Source: Dictyostelium discoideum (taxonomy: Eukaryota). Taken from it: a DNA stretch of 64,000 nucleotides. The position numbers were made by a program, and so were the translations under genes. This document shows, in pieces, positions 8,066 to 45,480 of the stretch. The notes beneath the pieces were generated by a model, which worked only from the letters and a program-made list of their open reading frames with translations, had not been told where the DNA came from and searched no databases. The stretch is from positions 1,696,001-1,760,000 of the forward strand of contig CM000152.2 in the NCBI GenBank assembly GCA_000004695.1. The letters run 5' to 3'. The first letter of the stretch is position 1. Every line of letters starts with the position of its first letter.

Positions 8066-10006
8066 ATTAGTTTTTTATGTGACTTTAATTTATTATTTGT
8101 AATATTTGAATTAATGAATATAAGTAAATTATTTAAAGAAAAGACATCAACATCACAGTCAAAAGTTAAATTTAAAAAATCAAAAGAGATTGATTTCTTT
8201 TTAGAGTATTTTACAAAGATTATAAAAGTTTTATGTAAAGAGGTAGTTTCATCATCATCATCATCAAATAATAATAATCCAGATGAAATTAATAATACAT
8301 TGGGATTAATTGATACTTATCTTAGTACTTTCTATGGATTTTTAAGTGAAGATAAATTAGATCAAGTTATAACACCTCCAGCTATTGAATGTAAAGGTTC
8401 TCATATGAATTCAATTATTGCAATAATGAAAAAATTCGATTCAATCATACCTTCTGAAGTCATTGCTGATACAAATGATATTTCAATTAATATCTCTTAT
8501 TCAATTTTAGATTTAGATCCACCTTTAGATGGTTTCTTAGATCAAAATCCAATAACTTCTTCTTCATTGTCAACAATACAACAACAACAACAACAACAAC
8601 AACTTGGAAATAGTAGTAACAATAATAATTATAACAATAATAATAATAATGATACTAGTGGTAATGGTTCAGTAATATTTAAATATTCACCAAAGAGTAC
8701 TGAATATATGGGAATTGTTCATGATATTATCACAAGAATACCAATTGCACCAAGAATTGATAAACCATACAAAAAATGTATTAGATGTCATAGAATTACT
8801 GTGATGTTACGTACCTCTATGTTTTGGTCTGATCGTTGGTCAATGGCTTGTCCAATTTGTGGTGGAAAATGGAAATCTTATCAATCTTCCTCTTCTTCAT
8901 ATTCTTCTTCCTCCAATACTCATGATATTGGTGCTCCTATTCAACAACCTCAATCACAACCGCAATTGAATCCACCACAATCCCAAACTCAAAATCAAGC
9001 ACAAACACAATCCCAAACTCAAAACCAAAACCAACCACAAACTCAATCACAAACACAAACTCAACCACAGACACAGACACAACCCCAAACACAAACTCAA
9101 CCACAGATCCAATCGCAACAAACTCCACAATCACAAATACAAACTCAAACTCAACCACAAAACCAAACTCAATCACAAAATCAACCACAGATCCAATCGC
9201 AACAAACTCCACAATCACAAACACAAACCCAACAATCACAAAACCAACAAACCCAAAATCAAAATCAAAATCAAAACCAAAATCAAAACCAAAACCAAAA
9301 CCAACAAAACCAAAACCAAAACCAACAAAACCAAAACCAACAAAACCAAAATCAACTAAATCAAAACCAACAAAATCAAAACCAACAAAATCAAAACCAA
9401 CAAAATCAAAACCAACAAAATCAAAATCAAAACCAAAACCAAAACCAAAACCAAAACCAAAACCAAAACCAAAACCAATATCAAAATCAGAATCAAAACC
9501 AAAATCAAAATCAAAATCAAAATCAAAATCAAAATCAAAATCAAAATCAAAATCAAAATCAAAATCAAAATCAAAATCAAAATCAAAATCAAAACCAAAA
9601 TCAACAAAGCCAACAACTTCAACAGCAACTTTTACAACAACAACTACAGCAGCAACAACTTCAACAGCAACTATTACAACAGCAACAACAACAACAACTA
9701 CAACAACAACAACTACAACAACAACAAATACTACTTCAACAACAGCAACAACAACAAAATCAACAAACACCTCAACAAAACCAACAAACACCTCAACAAC
9801 ATCCACCGACACCACAATCACATATTAATCAACAGAACTTGAACCACACCCCACAACAACATCAAGAACCTGTTCATACTCCACAACAACATCCACCAAC
9901 ACCACANNNNNNNNNNNNNNNNNNNNNNNNNNNNNNNNNNNNNNNNNNNNNNNNNNNNNNNNNNNNNNNNNNNNNNNNNNNNNNNNNNNNNNNNNNNNNN
10001 NNNNNN

Positions 10007-10054
<48 letters not shown>

Positions 10055-11306
10055 GGCTGCTTTACTACTACAACAGCAACAACAGCAAGCTGCTCAACAA
10101 GCCGCTTTACTTCAACAGCAACAACAACAACAAGCTGCTCAACAAGCTGCTGCTCAACAAGCTGCTCAACAAGCTCAGCAAGCTGCTTTACTTCAACAAC
10201 AACAACAAGCTGCTCAACAAGCTCAGCAAGCCGCTTTACTTCAACAACAACAACAAGCTGCCCAACAAGCCCTGCTCCAACAAAAACAACAAGCTGCTGC
10301 TCAACAAGCTCTACTCCAGCAACAACATCAACAAATTCAAAATATGAAAAATCAACAAGCAACTTCACCTCAATCACCATTATCAGGAGTACCACACCAT
10401 AATCAAATTACCCTACAACAACAACAACTACTACAACAACAACAACTACAACAACAGCAGCAAGCCCAGCAACAGCAACAACAGCAACAACAACCTAATC
10501 AACAAATGAGTCAAGGACAACATCCAGTCCCTCAACCAAATCAATTTGCAATGGCAAAACCACCAATTCAAAATCCACAACCCCATTTAATACCAAACCC
10601 ACAACAACCATCCGTACCAAATCCTCATGGCGCCAGTGTCGCTTCACCCCAAACCCCTTCTACAATTCAACAACATTTCCAAAAGAATCATGCTGCGCTT
10701 GCTCAAAATAATGCAAATATCAACACAAACTCACAACAACAAGCGGCACTTAAACAACAGGCTACAAACATTTCATTACAAATCTCTCAGCAACAACAAG
10801 GAAGTCCTCAACAATTGCAATTAATGCAACAACAACAAATGGTACTTTCCCAAATTACTCAATTGCAGCAACAACACACTAAACTTACTCAAACCCATAA
10901 TTATCTTCAACAACAAACTCAATTTCTTATTCAACAATTACAGTTACATCAACAACAACAACAACAACCACAACAACAAAACCAACAACAACAGCAACAA
11001 AACCAACCACAACAGCAACCACAACCACAACCACAACCTCAACCACAACCACAACCACAACCACAACCACAACCACAACCACAACCACCACAACAACAAA
11101 ACCAAAACCAACCACAACAGCAACCAAACCAACCAAACCAACAAATAACAAATCAACAAGTAAATCAACAACAGAATCAACAAATGTCTTTGAATGCTTT
11201 ATTACAACAGTTGCAACAACTTCAACAACTAAGCCAACAAGGTCAATTAACACCACAACAAATTCAACTACAGCAACAAATTATATCACAACTACAACAG
11301 AATTAA
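8066..11306 (+). CDS. med16: MED16-like protein, exon 4: conserved C-terminal Cys4 module ([35 protein letters not shown]) followed by a >700-aa Q/N/P-rich tail; contains the 100-N gap 9907-10006
   Basis: Splicing 7971 to 8066 is in frame with no stop ([26 protein letters not shown]...). An N-terminal WD propeller plus C-terminal Zn-ribbon-like CxxC...CxxC is the MED16 architecture. The frame after the gap cannot be tied to the frame before it. The post-gap frame (that of ORF 10344-11306) runs to TAA at 11304-11306. Confidence 0.4.
9907..10006. other. Assembly gap (100 N)
   Basis: Exact N100 inside the MED16-like poly-Q coding tail. Confidence 1.
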
Positions 11307-12044
11307 ATTCAGCAACACCAACGCCAACAACTAAATCAACAACAACAACAAAATCAACAACAAAATCAACAACAAAATCAACAACAAAATCAACAACAAA
11401 ATCATCAAAATCAACAAAATCATCCAAAAACCCAACCACAACAAAATCAAAATCAAAATCAACAATTCCAACAAAATCAACAAAATCAAAATCAACAAAA
11501 TCAACAAAATCAACAAAATCAACAAAATCAACAAAATCAACAAATAAATCAACAATTAAACCAACAACAGCAGTTTTTTCAAATGATACAAAATCTTAGA
11601 ACAACTGACCCACAGCGTTATGAGCAATTGAGACAGCAACAATTACAATTACAACAACAGCAACAACAGCAACAACAACAGCAACCACAACAACCACAAC
11701 CTCAACAACCACAACAACCACAACAACCACAACAACCACAACAACCTCAACAACCACAACAGCAACCTCAACAAAACCAAGTTCCCCAACAATTCCAACA
11801 GTTCCGTCCACAGCAACTCACTGTTCAACAAATACAACAGTTGCAGCAATTTCAACAACAACAGCAACAGCAACAACACCAACCAACCCAACAACAATTT
11901 CAATTAACTCCTCAACAAATCCAACAATTCCAACAACTAAATCCACAACAAGCTTTTCAATTACAACAACAATTGCAACAACAACAGTTGCAACAGCAAC
12001 AACAACAACAACAACAACAACAACAAAACCAAAATCCACAATAA
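11307..12044 (+). other. Q-rich open frame continuing the MED16-like tail in the same frame after a single TAA
   Basis: Frame 0 is open from 11307 to TAA TAA at 12042-12047. It carries the same LTPQQIQ(L/Q)FQQL motif as the upstream tail, and only one stop codon separates the two. Confidence 0.3.
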
Positions 12045-18880: not shown

Positions 18881-19652
18881 ATGGACGAATTGGATGAATT
18901 ATTGTCAAATCCAAACGTAAATGTAGATGATGAAAAGTACAAACAAATTCACAATCTTTTTAGCTCACCCCAACCNNNNNNNNNNNNNNNNNNNNNNNNN
19001 NNNNNNNNNNNNNNNNNNNNNNNNNNNNNNNNNNNNNNNNNNNNNNNNNNNNNNNNNNNNNNNNNNNNNNNNNNNTACACAACAGCCTCAAGCTCAACAG
19101 CAACAACATCAACATCAACAGCAACAACAGCAACAACCACAAGCTCAACAACAACAAGCCCAATCTCAACAACCACAACAACCTCAACAAGCAACACCAA
19201 AACCTCAACCTCAACGTACAGTTATTACTTTAACTCAACAACAACAACAACATTATTTAACATTGACAAATCAACAAGCACAACAACAATATTTACATCA
19301 AATAAGAGCACAACAACAACAGGCCGCTCTACTATTACAACAACAACGTTTACAACAACAACAACAACAACAACAACAGCAAGTACAACAACAGGGTCAA
19401 CCAAACCCACTAATGGGTGGTGCAGCAAAAACTATATATATGTCAACTCAACAAGGTGTTCCACAACCACAACAAAATACTATACAAAAGATGCCTCCAA
19501 ATGTAGGAACAGCCCAAATGAAACCAATGCCACAAAATCAACAAATGTACTCACAACAAACAGGTGTCCAACAACAACAACAACAACAACAACCACAAGT
19601 TATGAATATTGCAAAACCACAACCAACTGTACAACCCCATCCTCAAGCATTA

Positions 19653-35370: not shown

Positions 35371-38300
35371 GTTTATTATTATTAGTTTATCATTGGGTAC
35401 CAAGATGGGGTATTAAAATGAGATTTAAAGAATGTAAATTAAATGATGCAAATTATGTTTATGTTAAAGCAAAAGATAAGAAATATGAACTTAGTCAAGT
35501 GAAACATGTATTAATTGGAAAGAAAGATTTAGAATTTTCAGAAAGTGAAAAGAAGGATAAATATATTGAATTCAAATTCACTCGTTTATTCTATAATGTA
35601 GAGAAAGATTTATTCATTAGACCAATTAGTAACACTGATTATCATAGAAGTAAAATCAATGAATTGGTGAAGACCGGTTTATCAATGAATAAATATCAAG
35701 AGGGTAGAGATCTTTTTGGACCCAATTTAATTAGTGTGCCATTGAAATCAATTCCATCATTGTTGTTAGACGAGATTTTACATCCATTCTTTATCTTTCA
35801 AATTTATTCAATCATTCTTTGGTGTACAGAAGATTATTATGTTTATGCAGGTGCAATTCTTTTCATTGCTTTGGTTACTGCCATTTTCACATTACGTGAG
35901 ACTCGTAATAATCTCTTGCGTTTAAATGAGATCGCCACCTATAGATGTGATGTGACAGTGTTAAGAGATGGTAAACTTCAAGTGGTATCCTCAGAGACAT
36001 TGGTTCCAGGTGATATTATCGAAATTCAAAAATCATTGGTACTTCCATGTGATTTTTGTTTATTAACTGGTACTGTAATTCTCAACGAGTCAATGTTAAC
36101 AGGTGAATCGATCCCAGTTACAAAGTATTCATTGGAGGAGTGTTCAGGTGATCAATTGTCTGTGGACCCATTGGTGAATAAACGTTGTGCAATGTCTGGT
36201 GGTACAAAGGTTGTTAAAACTCAAGCCAAAGAGAAGGATGCTAAAATCTTTGCAATGGTTACCAATACAAGTTGGTTAACTACAAAGGGTGGTTTGGTAT
36301 TGTCAATGTTGTATCCAAAGGAATCTCATTTCAAATTCTTTGAACAATCTTTGAAATTCTTGGGTGTACTTTGTTTCATTGCATTGATTGGTTTCGGTGT
36401 TTCAGTATGGAGATTAATTAAAGCAGGCGAACAATTAAGTGAGGTAGTTACCAAAGCATTGGATTTAATTACAATTGTTGTTCCACCAGCTTTACCAATG
36501 GCACAAAGTGTTGGTACAGGTTTCAGTATCGTACGTTTAAAGGCAAATAAAATCTTTTGTATTTCACCACCAAGAGTTAATATGGCAGGTAAAGTTGAAG
36601 TCTATTGTTTCGATAAAACTGGTACACTCACTGAAGATGGTTTAGATTTGTTTGGTGTATTACCATCCCATCAAGATAGTAATAATAGTGGTGGTTTTGG
36701 TACAGTAATTAAAACCGATTTAAATCGTATGACAGGTCCATTATTTTTAACAATGGCCACCTGTCATACTTTGGCTCATATCGATGAACAAGTTAGTGGT
36801 GATCCATTGGAAGAGAAGATTTTCACTGCAACAAATGCAAAGTTAAATGATAATGGTGAATTTGGTTTTTGTGCATCAATTCAATTGTCAAAAGTTGATA
36901 ATATCTCTATGGTTCATCAAGAATATCCAATCTCTACAGTGGATGTTGAAACCTCTGATCAAATTGCATTGGTTGAACGTTTCGAATTTCAATCTGCACT
37001 TCAAAGAATGAGTGTTGTAATTAGAGGTATTAGAGCAACCGATGGTTCAACTCAAAGTAGTAAAGATTTGGCAATTGTTAAAGGTTCACCAGAGATGATT
37101 AAAAAACTTTCAAATCCAACTTCAATTCCATCCGATTTTGAACATGTTCTTAGCACCTATACAAAGAAGGGTTATCGTGTATTGGGTTGTGGTTATAAAG
37201 AATGGGATCCATCAGATTCAATTGGTAAAACAAAGGATGAAATTAGATCAATGGTTGAGAGAGATTTAATGTTTTTAGGTTTCATTATTATGGAGAATAA
37301 AATTAAACCAGAGACTGCTGGTGCATTAAAGGTATTAAAGGATGCAAATATTCGTATCATTATGGTCACTGGTGATAATGTTCTAACCGCAGTTAGTGTT
37401 TCAAGAGAATGCGGTCTAGTCACTAAAGAGAAAACAATATTCTCGTCACAATTGGTTAATGATCCTGTAACTGGTAAACCAACAATGGTAGAATGGTTTG
37501 ATGTTACCTCACCTGAAGAATCAATTCCATTCACTTTGGACCCATACACTTTAACAATTAATAATGCTGGTGGTGGCAGTAATTACGATGATGAGTATAG
37601 TTTGGCTGTCACTGGTGATGTTTGGAAATATTATTATGATCAATTCAAAGCAAATGGTCAACCAACCATTTGTTTCAATCAAATCTTAAGAAAAGGTCAA
37701 GTGTTTGCACGTATGACACCAGATCAAAAACAAAATCTTATCGAGGAACTTCAAGTATTAGGACTCTATGTTGGCATGTGTGGTGATGGTGCAAATGATT
37801 GTGGTGCATTAAAAGCTGCACATGTTGGTATTTCTTTATCTCAAGCTGAGGCATCTATTGCCGCTCCATTCACTTCAACCATTACCAATGTAACTTGTAC
37901 CTATAATCTAATTAAAGAGGGTAGAGCATCATTAACAGTGTCATTCAAACTTTTCCAATTCATTGGTATGTACTCATTGATTCAATTTTGTCAAGTTATT
38001 CTATTGTATTTCGATGGTTCCGTATTGAATAACTATCAATATCTCTATCAAGATCTTTGGGTAATTTTCCCATTGGTAATTTTCATGGGTCGTACTGAAC
38101 CATGTAGTAAACTCTCCATCAAAAGACCATCCTCTCGTTTAATTAGTTCAACAGTTATTGGTAGTTTACTCAGTCATGTCACATTAACATTTGTTTTCCA
38201 ATTATTGGTTTACATTTTCGTACGTCGTAATTCATGGTATAAGGATTTACCCGACACAAGCTCCAATGAAAATGAACCAAGATTAGATCATTTATTGGCA

Positions 38301-38690
38301 TCCCTTTTCATCTATGGTAATATGCAATACTCTGTCATGTGTTTCATTTACTCTTGGGGTAAACCTTTCCTTAGACCAATTTATACCAATCGTGCATTAT
38401 TCATCTTCTTTTGTGTAACACTTACAACTTCTTCATTATTATTATTGTTGCCTGTTTCCATTAGATTCTTTGGTACAACATGGTTAATGGATTTACCAGT
38501 ACGTTGGAGAGTTGAACTCTTAATTCTCTTTATTATCAATGCTGCTCTCGCTATGGCTGCCGAATGGATTATCATTGTCTATCGTGAAATCAGATCAAAA
38601 TCAAAGAGAAAATTAAAACAAAAACAAAATTCCGATCCAAATATTATTGCAAAAAATACTGTTAATGAAAGATATACTAGTTTAAATTAA
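35371..38690 (+). CDS. P5B-type P-type ATPase, exon 2 (PPALP M4 motif, DKTGTLTEDGLD phosphorylation site, TGDNVLTAVSVSRECGL, GDGANDCGALKAAHVGISL)
   Basis: The acceptor TTATTTATAG ends at 35370 and joins in frame. The PPALP variant, instead of PEGLP, is diagnostic of P5B ATPases. The total is 1158 aa. This is the same ATPase class as Dictyostelium Kil2; whether it is that gene cannot be decided here. Confidence 0.8.
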
Positions 38691-40319: not shown

Positions 40320-40761
40320 AATTGTAAATAATTTCTCTAAACTTTCATATTTTTTTATTATTTATTTTATTTTATTTTATTTTTGTTTTGGATTACTCAA
40401 AATTAAAAAAAATTTTAAAAGGTTTTAATCAATATAATATGGAAATAAATTAATCTTACTTTTTTTTTTTTTAATTTTTTTTTTTATCATTTTCATCTAT
40501 AGTTTTAAAGTTTTACATTGTTAAATATATAAATTTATTTATTTCTTTTTTATTATTATTTTTTTATTTTTCTGGTGGTTACTTTTTTTGGCCTTCTCGG
40601 TGTTGGTATTTATTTTAAAAATCTTGGTTGGTTAATTTCTATCATAAATTAAATAATTTTAAAAATAGGTTTTATAGGGTTATCTTTGTCTAATTAATAT
40701 CTAGATAAAATGGGGTGTTATTGTTATGGTTTCAATTCCAAAAAATAATATTAAAAAAAAT

Positions 40762-41809
40762 ATGGACATTNNNNNNNNNNNNNNNNNNNNNNNNNNNNNN
40801 NNNNNNNNNNNNNNNNNNNNNNNNNNNNNNNNNNNNNNNNNNNNNNNNNNNNNNNNNNNNNNNNNNNNNNTATGATGAAGATGGTTATGATGAAAATGGT
40901 TATGATAAATATGGTTATTTTTTATGTAAAAAAAACATCTATGATGAAAATGGCTATGATCAATATGGCTATAATGAATATGGTTATGATAAAGATGGTT
41001 ATGATGAAGATGGTTATGATGAAGAGGGTTATGATGAAGATGGTTATGATAAAGCTGGTTATGATAAATGTGGTTATAATGATGATGGTTATCATCAAGA
41101 TGGTTATAATGCATTAGGTTATTATGAAGATGGTTATAATATAAATGGTTATAATGAAGATGGTTATGATAAATATGGTTATAATGAAGATGGTTATGAT
41201 GAAGATGGTTATAATGAAGAGGGTTATGATAAAGATGGTTATCATATATATGGTTATAACAAATATGGTTATAATAAATATGGTTATGATAAATATGGTT
41301 ATGATAAAGATGGTTATGATAAAGACGGTTACGATGAAGATGATTATGATAAAAATGGTTATAATCCATATGGTTATGATAAAGATGGTTTTAATAAAAA
41401 TGGTTATAATAGAGATGGGGTTTATATAAAAAAAAAAAAACTTAACAAAATCACTAAAAAAAGCAAATTAGTTTTGAAATCATTAATTCCATATAAAGGT
41501 ATTCTTGCAAATAATTTAACAGATTTTAAATCAACTGAAAATGATTTCTTTTTAAATGTAGTGTCTCTTTTGTCACGTGAACGCCATATTACATTTATAT
41601 CTAGTGGTAACTTTGACAACAATTTCAACAATTGTTTGAAAATATCGCCGGAATTCTCAAAATGGAATAGTAATAAAGGTGAGGTAGAAATAAGTTCCTT
41701 TCCAACTTATGCTATAGATACAAAGGGTTCTAGAAGACTGACCTTTTATTTTTTTTCAATGAATAGTAAGTCTTTTTTATTAATTATAATTAACAATATT
41801 TTAAAATAA
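40762..41809 (+). CDS. Pentapeptide-repeat protein: about 55 tandem (D/N)GY(D/N)(E/K) units, then a 130-aa non-repetitive C-terminal domain; interrupted by the 100-N gap 40771-40870
   Basis: 15-nt DNA period (GATGGTTATGATGAA) built from preferred codons. The plus-strand frame runs out of the repeat into unique sequence (...FLNVVSLLSRERHITFISSGNFDNNFNNCLKISPEFSKWNSNKGEVEISSFPTYAIDTKGSRRLTFYFFSMN*). The ATG at 40762 is the presumed start, but the frame across the gap is unknown. Confidence 0.5.
40771..40870. other. Assembly gap (100 N)
   Basis: Exact N100 at the start of the pentapeptide-repeat coding region. Confidence 1.
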
Positions 41810-41837
41810 CCCCACTTGGTACTAATATAAATTAAAC

Positions 41838-41981
<144 letters not shown>

Positions 41982-42399
41982 CCAATAAAAGTCCAAACAT
42001 AATCATTATTTTAGAATTTAAATTTTTTCATAAGACTAATTCAATTTTCAGTTATTTTCTTGACGTAAAAAAAAGACCAACACTAATTACATTGATTTCT
42101 TTGAATCTGCCAAAGATCAAATATTCACAATGACTCAGAGAATTCTAGATGTATCAAAAAGTGTTGACAAAGAATATCAAATAATTAATTATCTCATATT
42201 TGGATATAAAGATATTTCAAAATTAAAAACTAGACCCCAAAGGATTGCTGATTTTGGTTTTGATATTTATTTAATTGATGCTGTTACTAAGGAATCAACG
42301 AAAATTCATAATTAAACAAAAATAAATATCCACTCCATGAAGGTCAAAAACAATAACAACAAGAGAATTAAAAAATAAAATAAAATAATAAAATTAAAA

Positions 42400-44047: not shown

Positions 44048-45378
44048 ATGAAAGTTTTATCTGCCTTATGCGTTTTATTAGTCAGTGTTGCCACTGCCAA
44101 ACAACAATTATCCGAAGTTGAATACAGAAATGCTTTCACCAATTGGATGATTGCTCACCAAAGACATTATTCATCAGAAGAGTTCAATGGTCGTTACAAT
44201 ATCTTCAAAGCCAATATGGATTACGTCAATGAATGGAATACCAAAGGTAGTGAAACCGTTTTAGGTTTAAATGTCTTTGCTGATATCAGCAATGAAGAAT
44301 ACAGAGCCACCTATTTAGGTACCCCATTCGATGCTTCATCCCTCGAAATGACCGAATCCGATAAAATCTTCGATGCTTCCGCTCAAGTCGATTGGAGAAC
44401 TCAAGGTGCTGTCACCCCAATCAAAAATCAAGGTCAATGTGGTGGTTGTTGGTCATTCTCAACTACTGGTGCCACTGAAGGTGCTCAATACCTTGCCAAC
44501 GGTAAAAAGAATTTAGTCTCATTATCCGAACAAAATTTAATCGATTGTTCAGGTTCATACGGTAACAACGGTTGTGAAGGTGGTTTAATGACCTTAGCTT
44601 TCGAATACATCATCAATAACAAAGGTATTGATACTGAAAGCAGCTACCCATACACTGCTGAAGACGGTAAAAAATGTAAATTCAACCCAAAGAATGTTGC
44701 TGCTCAATTATCATCATACGTTAACGTTACCTCTGGTTCAGAATCAGATTTAGCTGCCAAAGTTACTCAAGGTCCAACCTCAGTTGCCATTGATGCATCC
44801 AACCAATCATTCCAATTGTACGTTTCAGGTATCTACAATGAGCCAGCTTGCTCTTCAACTCAATTAGATCACGGTGTCTTAGCTGTTGGTTTCGGTACTG
44901 GTAGTGGTTCATCTGGTTCCCATGGTGGTTCCCAATCACAATCTGCTGGTTCAGATTCACAATCTGCTGGTTCAGAATCATCCCAATCTGAATCCGGTTC
45001 ACAATCACAATCTGAATCCGGTTCACAATCACAATCACAATCTGGTTCTCAATCATTCTCTGGTTCCTTATACTCTGGTTCATACTCTGGTTCCCAATCT
45101 GGTTCCCAATCTGGTAACAGCGGTGCTGCTGTTAAACAAACTGGTGCTGGTTCAGGTTCAGGTTCAGGTTCAGGTTCCGGTTCCGGTTCAGGTTCAGGTT
45201 CAGTCTCAGGTTCAGCTTCAGGTTCCGCCTCAGGTTCCGCCTCAGGTTCATCAAGTGGTAGCAATAGCAACGGTGGTGTTTATCCAACCGCTGGTGACTA
45301 CTGGATCGTTAAAAACTCATGGGGTACCTCATGGGGTATGGATGGTTACATTTTAATGACCAAAGGAAATAACAATCA
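44048..45378 (+). CDS. Papain-family cysteine proteinase (cathepsin L-like) with C-terminal Ser/Gly-rich insert, exon 1
   Basis: Signal peptide [17 protein letters not shown]. Propeptide ERFNIN-like ([21 protein letters not shown]). Active-site [11 protein letters not shown] and H ([10 protein letters not shown]), N...W (NSWGTSWG). A roughly 120-aa (GS/QS)n insert sits before the C-terminus. GTAAGT donor, phase 2. It resembles the Dictyostelium CP4/CP5-type proteinases (cprD/cprE class) that carry Ser-rich GlcNAc-1-P domains. Confidence 0.85.
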
Positions 45379-45480
45379 GTAAGTACATAATATATAAAAT
45401 AATTTATATACATATTTATAATAAAAATAGAAATACTAACTAATTTTTTTTTTTTTTTTTTTTTAAATTTTCCTTTATAG

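Follow-up and report, generated by a model that had tools for sequence, protein, structure and literature searches.

The AX4 chromosome 3 of Dictyostelium discoideum carries, in the 64,000-nucleotide stretch analysed here (contig CM000152.2 of assembly GCA_000004695.1, positions 1,696,001 to 1,760,000; hereafter the window), a gene that joins a tandem array of acidic Gly-Tyr-Asp pentapeptides to a C-terminal domain. This domain quite probably has a PD-(D/E)xK (restriction-endonuclease-like) fold and would form a new family restricted to Dictyostelium. The interpretation favoured here, with moderate confidence and partly by analogy, is that of an effector-plus-accessory-array protein, in which the C-terminal domain would cut nucleic acid and the array would be a non-catalytic accessory module. 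The new elements are a genus-restricted PD-(D/E)xK-like family, a widespread and uncatalogued class of G-[YF]-[DN]-x-x arrays, the amoebal fusion of both and a corrected AX4 annotation; as kinds, neither this nuclease fold nor tandem arrays of pentapeptides are new.

In the form represented by its intact orthologue P0001, the gene would encode a cytosolic and Dictyostelium-specific protein of two modules, specified by two exons. Its order would be a Met followed by a few residues, a G-Y-(D/N)-(K/E)-(D/N/Y) array, a Lys-rich linker and the PD-(D/E)xK-like domain of about 220 residues. Metal-dependent cleavage of nucleic acid would be the likeliest action of this domain, and the acidic Gly/Tyr/Asx-rich array may act as a turn-forming spacer or as a binding or regulatory scaffold. 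The array is regarded as an accessory module by analogy with the bacterial and phage arrays that stand beside HEPN, DarT, HIRAN and RIIB (and amidoligase) domains.

Gene architecture and the C-terminal domain

The gene lies on the forward strand and starts with ATG GAC ATT (M-D-I, 40762-40770 of the window), followed by an assembly gap of exactly 100 N (40771-40870) and then by the array in the GYD frame. The gap, located inside the repeat as the first-pass annotation had noticed, is a placeholder whose true size is not given by the N count. The ATG and the frame that resumes after the gap are 109 nt apart and thus out of frame if the 100 N are read literally, which is meaningless for a placeholder. 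The visible G-Y-(D/N)-x-x array covers 40871-41416 with a 15-nt period. Tandem Repeats Finder describes a single array (40871-41418, period 15, 36.9 copies, 79% matches) with the consensus TATGATAAAGATGGT, and a two-unit pattern, GGNTAYRAY-N6-GGNTAYRAY, occurs 21 times, always inside the array, and not once in 100 shuffles.

In the GYD frame, 35 clean units can be read, with Gly in 33, Tyr in 34 and Asp or Asn in 31 of them. Units vary only at the first bases of codons 3, 4 and 5, toggling between D and N, K and E, and D, Y and N, respectively. A single interruption near the start, the insertion of about eight residues (FLCKKNIY) after unit three, shifts the register of the array, so the perfect regularity initially described does not hold. 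The estimate of about 55 units lacks support as well, since about 36-37 units are visible outside the placeholder gap, and the orthologues have about 25-26. The repeat was otherwise correctly perceived as highly acidic and tyrosine-rich (25% Tyr, 21% Asp and 18% Gly, with a net charge of -36 over 185 amino acids) and as genuinely coding. Indeed, its open reading frame (ORF) runs in frame into non-repetitive sequence as far as a stop codon at 41807-41809, and the intact P0001 holds the array and the C-terminal domain in one protein. Other frames across the array that could be taken for genes (MMKMV... on the plus strand, 40872-41429; HNHLYHNH... on the minus strand, 40701-41369) are by-products of the 15-nt periodicity; they were rejected because it is in the GYD frame only that the array runs on into the conserved domain and agrees with the orthologues.

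A search with the array and the C-terminus identifies two Dictyostelium proteins, P0001 (364 amino acids, from a 'D. discoideum' isolate, locus L001) and P0002 (241 amino acids, from 'D. cf. discoideum', locus L002). Both loci are syntenic with the window, with the succession of a P5-ATPase, a gene of 417-422 amino acids, the array gene, a gene of 455-458 amino acids, an FNIP gene and PARP, and their flanks are about 93% identical to it. Judged by these sequences, P0001 and P0002 are orthologues of the AX4 gene from diverged lineages. The AX4 start codon stands in the AATATGGNNATT context common to the annotated starts of P0001 (MEIKVIY...) and P0002 (MGIKKKVIY...), and the orthologues, which begin with MEIKVIYYEFGYN and MGIKKKVIYDKYGYD, respectively, enter the array about six residues after the Met. 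With at least 37 units, the AX4 array is longer than those of L001 (about 26) and L002 (25). DNA identity between units is 79-93% across the Dictyostelium copies; the 93% reached in L002 indicates recent slippage or unequal exchange.

P0001 extends past the stop of the AX4 ORF, reading ...GSRRPDLLFFFKEY and then PKIIIILEFKFFHK...TKIHN. Together with the other syntenic orthologue and a homologue from D. purpureum (P0121), it gives the C-terminal domain a real size of about 220 residues over two exons. The exon-1 part (41417-41765, plus strand) was delimited by alignment with P0001, P0002 and P0121 and by predicted secondary structure; it includes a KKKK linker, helices with a conserved ENDF, strand beta-1 (GEVEIS) and a GSRR[PD]LLFFF strand. 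It is followed by an intron of 226 nt (41766-41991, plus strand, GTAAGT...AAAAG), deduced from a three-way DNA alignment. The P0001 model has an intron of 113 nt at the same site; that of AX4 is longer because it holds (AAC)50. This microsatellite, (AAC)50.7 at 41835-41985, has 12.7 copies in L001 and essentially none in L002, and the tract has therefore expanded in the AX4 lineage. In L002, the donor site is GTAGGT in place of GTAAGT, and the 241-residue model P0002 ends at a TAG that overlaps it.

The stop codon of the literal AX4 ORF falls within the intron. Thus, the 130-residue C-terminal domain first proposed was mis-delimited: its last 23 residues or so (LTFYFFSMNSKSFLLIIINNILK) are frameshifted sequence and intron read-through, and the true domain continues in exon 2 to 42315. 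Exon 2 (41992-42315, plus strand) includes an IIIILEFKFF strand (ExK at 42014-42022), a long helix (ESAK), strand beta-4 (ILGYK) and the C-terminus, with the stop codon at 42313-42315. Its end is annotated as an ORF of 61 amino acids, DDB_G0279197 (42130-42315, plus strand), identical to P0122 (XP_641717.1, Q54X60, 'hypothetical protein'). DDB_G0279197 corresponds to the final 61 codons of the array-plus-nuclease-like gene, taken from an internal Met, and the 5' part has stayed unannotated because it spans the gap. The annotation should thus be corrected, DDB_G0279197 being the end of a longer gene, or pseudogene, that specifies some 400 amino acids or more. A literature search for DDB_G0279197 and for GYD-type repeats gave nothing relevant.

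Whether 1.84 billion representatives are scanned in full with HMMER or a profile built on four sequences is used, only P0001, P0002, P0122 and P0121 are recovered as relatives of the C-terminal domain, and the truncated AX4 C-terminus used alone in a word-indexed homology search gives no match. P0121 is the D. purpureum protein F0ZTU9, 225 amino acids long, labelled 'expressed protein' and 38% identical to P0001. This protein lacks an array; its gene is not syntenic and carries an intron at the same position, between PD and ExK. The positions kept in P0001, in the repaired AX4 protein and in P0121 are ENDF (in a helix), ExEI, GSRRPD[IL]LF and II.IE.KFF, and at the sequence level they form the classic E...PD...(D/E)xK signature.

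AlphaFold2 (AF2) supplied with a five-row alignment gives a model with a predicted local distance difference test score (pLDDT) of 58.9 and a predicted template modelling score (pTM) of 0.64, the C-terminal core reaching a pLDDT of 70-80; from the single sequence, the model was unusable (pLDDT 41.8). In the alignment-based model, PD opens one strand and ExK lies in the next, followed by a long helix and a further strand. The predicted core is alpha-beta-beta-beta-alpha-beta, as in the PD-(D/E)xK superfamily, and the catalytic-type Asp at the start of beta-2 and the (D/E)-x-K of beta-3 are conserved among the homologues and placed on predicted strands. A putative nuclease activity would depend on D109, E125 and K127 (numbering of a 224-residue construct). 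Searches of the domain against Pfam, NCBIfam and PDB sequences returned nothing meaningful: Pfam at E<=10 yielded spurious matches to Clp1 and PycTM only, and phmmer and profile searches of the PDB gave nothing relevant.

The array class in bacteria, phages and protists

The repeat type is by no means rare, since 375 bacterial, phage and protist proteins match the array at E <= 0.001 in the search made with the array and the C-terminus. The best 120 of these 375 were read, of which 118 do not come from Dictyostelium, and the description of the class given here applies to these 118 proteins. Their consensus is G-[Y 77%/F 23%]-[D 60%/N 40%]-[K/R/E]-[D/N/E/Y], repeated in 12-33 units, and the array stands at either end of one other domain. 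The AX4 array shares the features that delimit the class (at least 12 tandem five-residue units, with Gly, an aromatic residue at +1 and Asp or Asn at +2), and all five of its positions agree with the 118-protein consensus. Named sources include Candidatus Delongbacteria, Desulfamplus, Wolbachia (P0102) and Entamoeba marina (P0017). The initial impression that the repeat is not a described family is borne out: no model in Pfam or NCBIfam covers the array, and no such sequence strings were found in the literature searched. No solved example turns up when the PDB is searched by sequence, a bacterial array giving only a non-significant match to the decapeptide repeats of DotG/IcmE.

The partner domains recognized by Pfam are DUF4145 (five proteins), Amidoligase_2 (three), HIRAN (two) and phosphoribosyltransferase (two), with one case each of DarT, DnaJ, DUF6273, DUF413, RBR/IBR and methyladenine glycosylase. 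PHROGs adds RIIB in three proteins, and PADLOC matches DarT, PsyrT and the candidate systems PDC-M03B and PDC-M16A. Thus, an array is associated with DUF4145/HEPN in P0013 and P0014, with DarT in P0029, with an amidoligase in P0044, P0085 and P0098, and it accompanies HIRAN in P0031 and P0108 and RIIB in P0055, P0064 and P0106. DUF4145 is a HEPN RNase family, for which an abortive-infection RNase has been established experimentally in RAZR (PMC3710099, PMC13017515). The genomic context of three array genes was considered: one comes directly after a prophage baseplate and endolysin module, a HIRAN-plus-array gene lies upstream of a DEAD/ResIII helicase, and P0008, placed among unannotated genes and acetyltransferases, is uninformative. 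The array thus appears recurrently joined to nucleic-acid-targeting or defence-type domains, and a conflict or defence context may be suggested for the class.

Units of the bacterial arrays are 63-72% identical at the DNA level; the pattern has been kept although the DNA of the units has diverged, and it is therefore maintained at the protein level. Some array proteins have signal or lipoprotein leaders (e.g., P0003, P0038 and P0092) and others have transmembrane anchors, and the array is therefore a general-purpose module not bound to one compartment. Phage genomes searched by tblastn with the array yielded no match, low-complexity masking being the probable cause, and P0055 matched phage rIIB genes over its non-repeat part only.

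Some features of these proteins deserve separate mention. Many bacterial arrays (P0004, P0008, P0018, P0020, P0022, P0028, P0083 and others) are broken periodically by a variant unit of greater length, G-[IV]-[HN]-[KR]-x-[TN]-G-T-[KR]-[YF]-D. At least 10 of these proteins share an uncharacterised C-terminal domain of about 150 residues (…LGLLxKAEKLAxGEMSIEEY…KPTExDVDxCIEYL…). P0066, P0073, P0086, P0087, P0094, P0095 and P0111-P0113 make up one family, encoded on ENA contigs of 0.5-3 Mb, in which a G[YF]N-type array occupies the centre of the protein and the tail is conserved (…LKILTPQQMLARLPILLAQIKAGNNSxELKNEIRQLLYSLYRSKQISKTVYKNLIATI); its source may be eukaryotic.

State of the locus and competing readings

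The AX4 gene as assembled departs from its orthologues by two frameshifts on the plus strand. At 41738-41739, one base fewer than in both orthologues (AGAAGA-CTGACC versus AGAAGACCTGACC) removes the Pro-Asp of the PD motif, and at 42064-42065, one base is again missing relative to both (GAC-GTAAAAAAAAG versus GATGGTRAAAAAAAG). The first frameshift is a derived state in AX4 because D. purpureum keeps GSRRPDILF. In the literal frame, PD is destroyed and ExK is out of frame; the spliced frame leads to ...FYFFSMN-IQT-stop, and the unspliced one stops at 41809. Unless they are sequencing errors, the two deletions therefore imply a pseudogene or a truncated product, and the AX4 copy is probably non-functional, i.e., a pseudogene or at best an array with half a domain.

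Relaxed constraint accompanies these lesions. Between AX4 and L001, the domain shows a synonymous divergence (dS) of 0.104 and a non-synonymous divergence (dN) of 0.079, hence a dN/dS of 0.76, rising to 1.1 downstream of the first frameshift, against 0.12, 0.22 and 0.31 at similar dS for three neighbouring genes (0.12 for the P5-ATPase and 0.31 for the cysteine protease). In the exon-1 part of the domain, synonymous and non-synonymous changes number 4 and 6 on the AX4 branch, 3 and 11 on that of L001 and 5 and 21 on that of L002, for a neutral ratio of about 1:4. AX4 thus combines frame-breaking lesions relative to intact orthologues with relaxed constraint, as a pseudogene does, sequencing error being possible. 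Exon 2 of L002 bears deletions of its own, of 83 nt and 1 nt (L002 about 9150-9250, columns 776-858 of alignment A1). Taken together, these data suggest that the locus evolves fast and is dispensable, with decay under way in L002 at least and probably in a second lineage as well.

The observations that weigh against an effector carrying an accessory array concern the AX4 deletions, the array and the domain, and each has to be set against a rival reading. Each deletion reduces a doublet to a single base (CC to C and GG to G), amid AT-rich sequence 0.9-1.3 kb from the assembly gap, and base-calling error is possible; the collapse of G/C doublets is a typical Sanger compression error. The AX4 gene could be intact, the two deletions being errors of the reference assembly near the gap and the full array-plus-nuclease protein being made, a reading whose chances we place a little below even. 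Restoring the two bases gives a protein that aligns end to end with P0001 with no stop codons, and of the three lineages, AX4 shows the fewest non-synonymous changes per synonymous one (6:4). However, finished sequence would not usually contain two independent errors within 330 bp, the dN/dS past the first frameshift speaks against intactness, and the sister L002 has unambiguous deletions in the same exon, so that decay at the locus is real. An exact-protein look-up of P0122 and a metagenome pattern scan found no independent D. discoideum sequence over the frameshift sites. The intact L001 copy is near-neutral too, and the whole locus, L001 included, may be in decay within this clade. Such near-neutral evolution is also consistent with the array being a young, functionless coding minisatellite, in which an AT-rich unit of 15 nt would have been multiplied by slippage or unequal exchange, a frequent occurrence in this genome, at the 5' end of an older Dictyostelium gene, the likeness to the bacterial arrays being convergent. 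Indeed, the D. purpureum homologue has the domain without the array, copy number varies among close relatives, the units are more alike in DNA than those of bacterial arrays, and Gly is gone from 6 of the 26 units of L001. Convergence could account for the resemblance to bacterial arrays, given that five-residue repeats inflate E-values, those of the HMMER array matches (1e-20 to 1e-50) being driven by periodic composition, and no non-repeat anchor is common to the Dictyostelium and bacterial array proteins. The minisatellite reading nevertheless appears somewhat unlikely, in view of the near-invariance of Gly and Tyr in AX4, of the restriction of variation to three codon positions, of the fit of five positions out of five to the consensus of 118 unrelated proteins, and of the survival of the bacterial pattern despite unit DNA divergence, which argues for selection on the pattern.

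As for the domain, no sequence or profile search ties it to a known nuclease family, a Foldseek search with its model gives nothing significant, and the model is of medium confidence, with residues 56-108 below a pLDDT of 50 and four of the five models poor. These results leave room for a domain that is not a nuclease, the PD...ExK being a coincidence within an unrelated alpha/beta module such as a binding domain. This is improbable, as the acidic and Lys residues belong to the small set of positions kept across species at 38% identity, and they sit on the expected strands of the AF2 model. An adhesive or extracellular-matrix role, raised by the first-pass annotation, would make the product a secreted acidic and Tyr-rich protein, binding Ca2+ or another metal or cross-linked. 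The Tyr and Asp content and the net charge would suit such a protein, and some bacterial array proteins do have leaders. Yet the Dictyostelium orthologues have neither a signal peptide nor a transmembrane segment, their N-termini proceeding from M-E/G-I-K into the array with no hydrophobic leader, and the N-terminal signal peptide that was to be looked for is likewise not seen in AX4, where MDI precedes the gap. In addition, the domain joined to the array resembles a nuclease and not a matrix module, and the D-x-D-G-x-D register of the array differs from the canonical DxDxDG Ca2+ loop. The secreted-protein reading is very improbable. The array might bind Ca2+, mimic DNA or behave like an elastomer. 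A bolder proposal would regard G-[YF]-[DN]-x-x arrays as an undescribed structural repeat class (e.g., a solenoid or beta-turn spiral), binding Ca2+ or mimicking polyanionic nucleic acid and serving bacteria, phages and amoebae as a portable sensor or regulatory module for conflict effectors. It is tentative and rather unlikely; if true, the Dictyostelium array-plus-nuclease gene would be a eukaryotic example, in the course of being lost in laboratory and wild lineages.

The window has a G+C content of about 22%, is crowded with CAA/AAT tracts and includes no tRNA gene. The array gene is flanked by a P5-type cation ATPase (35418-38690) and by a papain-like cysteine protease with a long Ser/Gly-rich insert (44048-45382). 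In AX4, about 340 bp of intergenic sequence lie upstream of the gene, compared with about 845 bp in L001, and this region of AX4 cannot be aligned with the orthologous loci (window 40424-40761, against L001 7157-8000); the promoter region has therefore been remodelled. Three gaps of exactly 100 N, all placeholders, are found in the window (9907-10006, 18976-19075 and 40771-40870). The first two adjoin CAA/ACA-rich tandem-repeat tracts detected by Tandem Repeats Finder, and the third is that of the GYD array. About 3 kb of CAA/ACA-rich tandem repeats (8969-12026), with periods of 3 to 84 nt and a strongly negative GC skew, presumably correspond to a Gln/Thr/Asn-rich coding region of the usual Dictyostelium type.

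Comparison with known repeats and nucleases

If the array has a defined structure or ligand, it would provide a new module for annotating defence and counter-defence proteins. Its closest counterparts are the bacterial and phage G-[YF]-[DN]-x-x arrays, which have the same five-position consensus, 12-33 units and one globular partner, often a nucleic-acid enzyme. Their partner domains are unrelated to the Dictyostelium one, those arrays are older at the DNA level, and many of them have periodic insertions of the form G-I-H-K-x-T-G-T-K-Y-D.

Canonical pentapeptide repeats (PF00805/PF13599, A(D/N)LXX, as in Qnr and MfpA), which fold as a right-handed quadrilateral beta-helix, have in common with the array class a strict five-residue period, tens of units, an acidic surface and frequent DNA-related functions. 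In contrast, the array consensus is G-[YF]-[DN]-x-x, with an invariant Gly and with D/N after the large hydrophobic residue rather than before it. The Pfam pentapeptide models match neither the AX4 protein (E<=1) nor the 118 array proteins (E<=0.001). Rhs/YD repeats, with units of about 20 residues, also carry a Y-D-x-x-G turn motif. The array differs from them by its period of 5 rather than about 20 residues and by the absence of a shell-forming context, and RHS_repeat and YD_repeat give no match in Pfam or NCBIfam.

Among PD-(D/E)xK nucleases, the structural neighbours of the modelled Dictyostelium domain are SfiI, SwaI, BglI, EcoRV, Hjc and the Wolbachia CinB. The domain differs from all catalogued families of this superfamily in having no detectable sequence or profile similarity to any of them, in being confined to Dictyostelium (the D. 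discoideum clade and D. purpureum) and in its fusion to a pentapeptide array.

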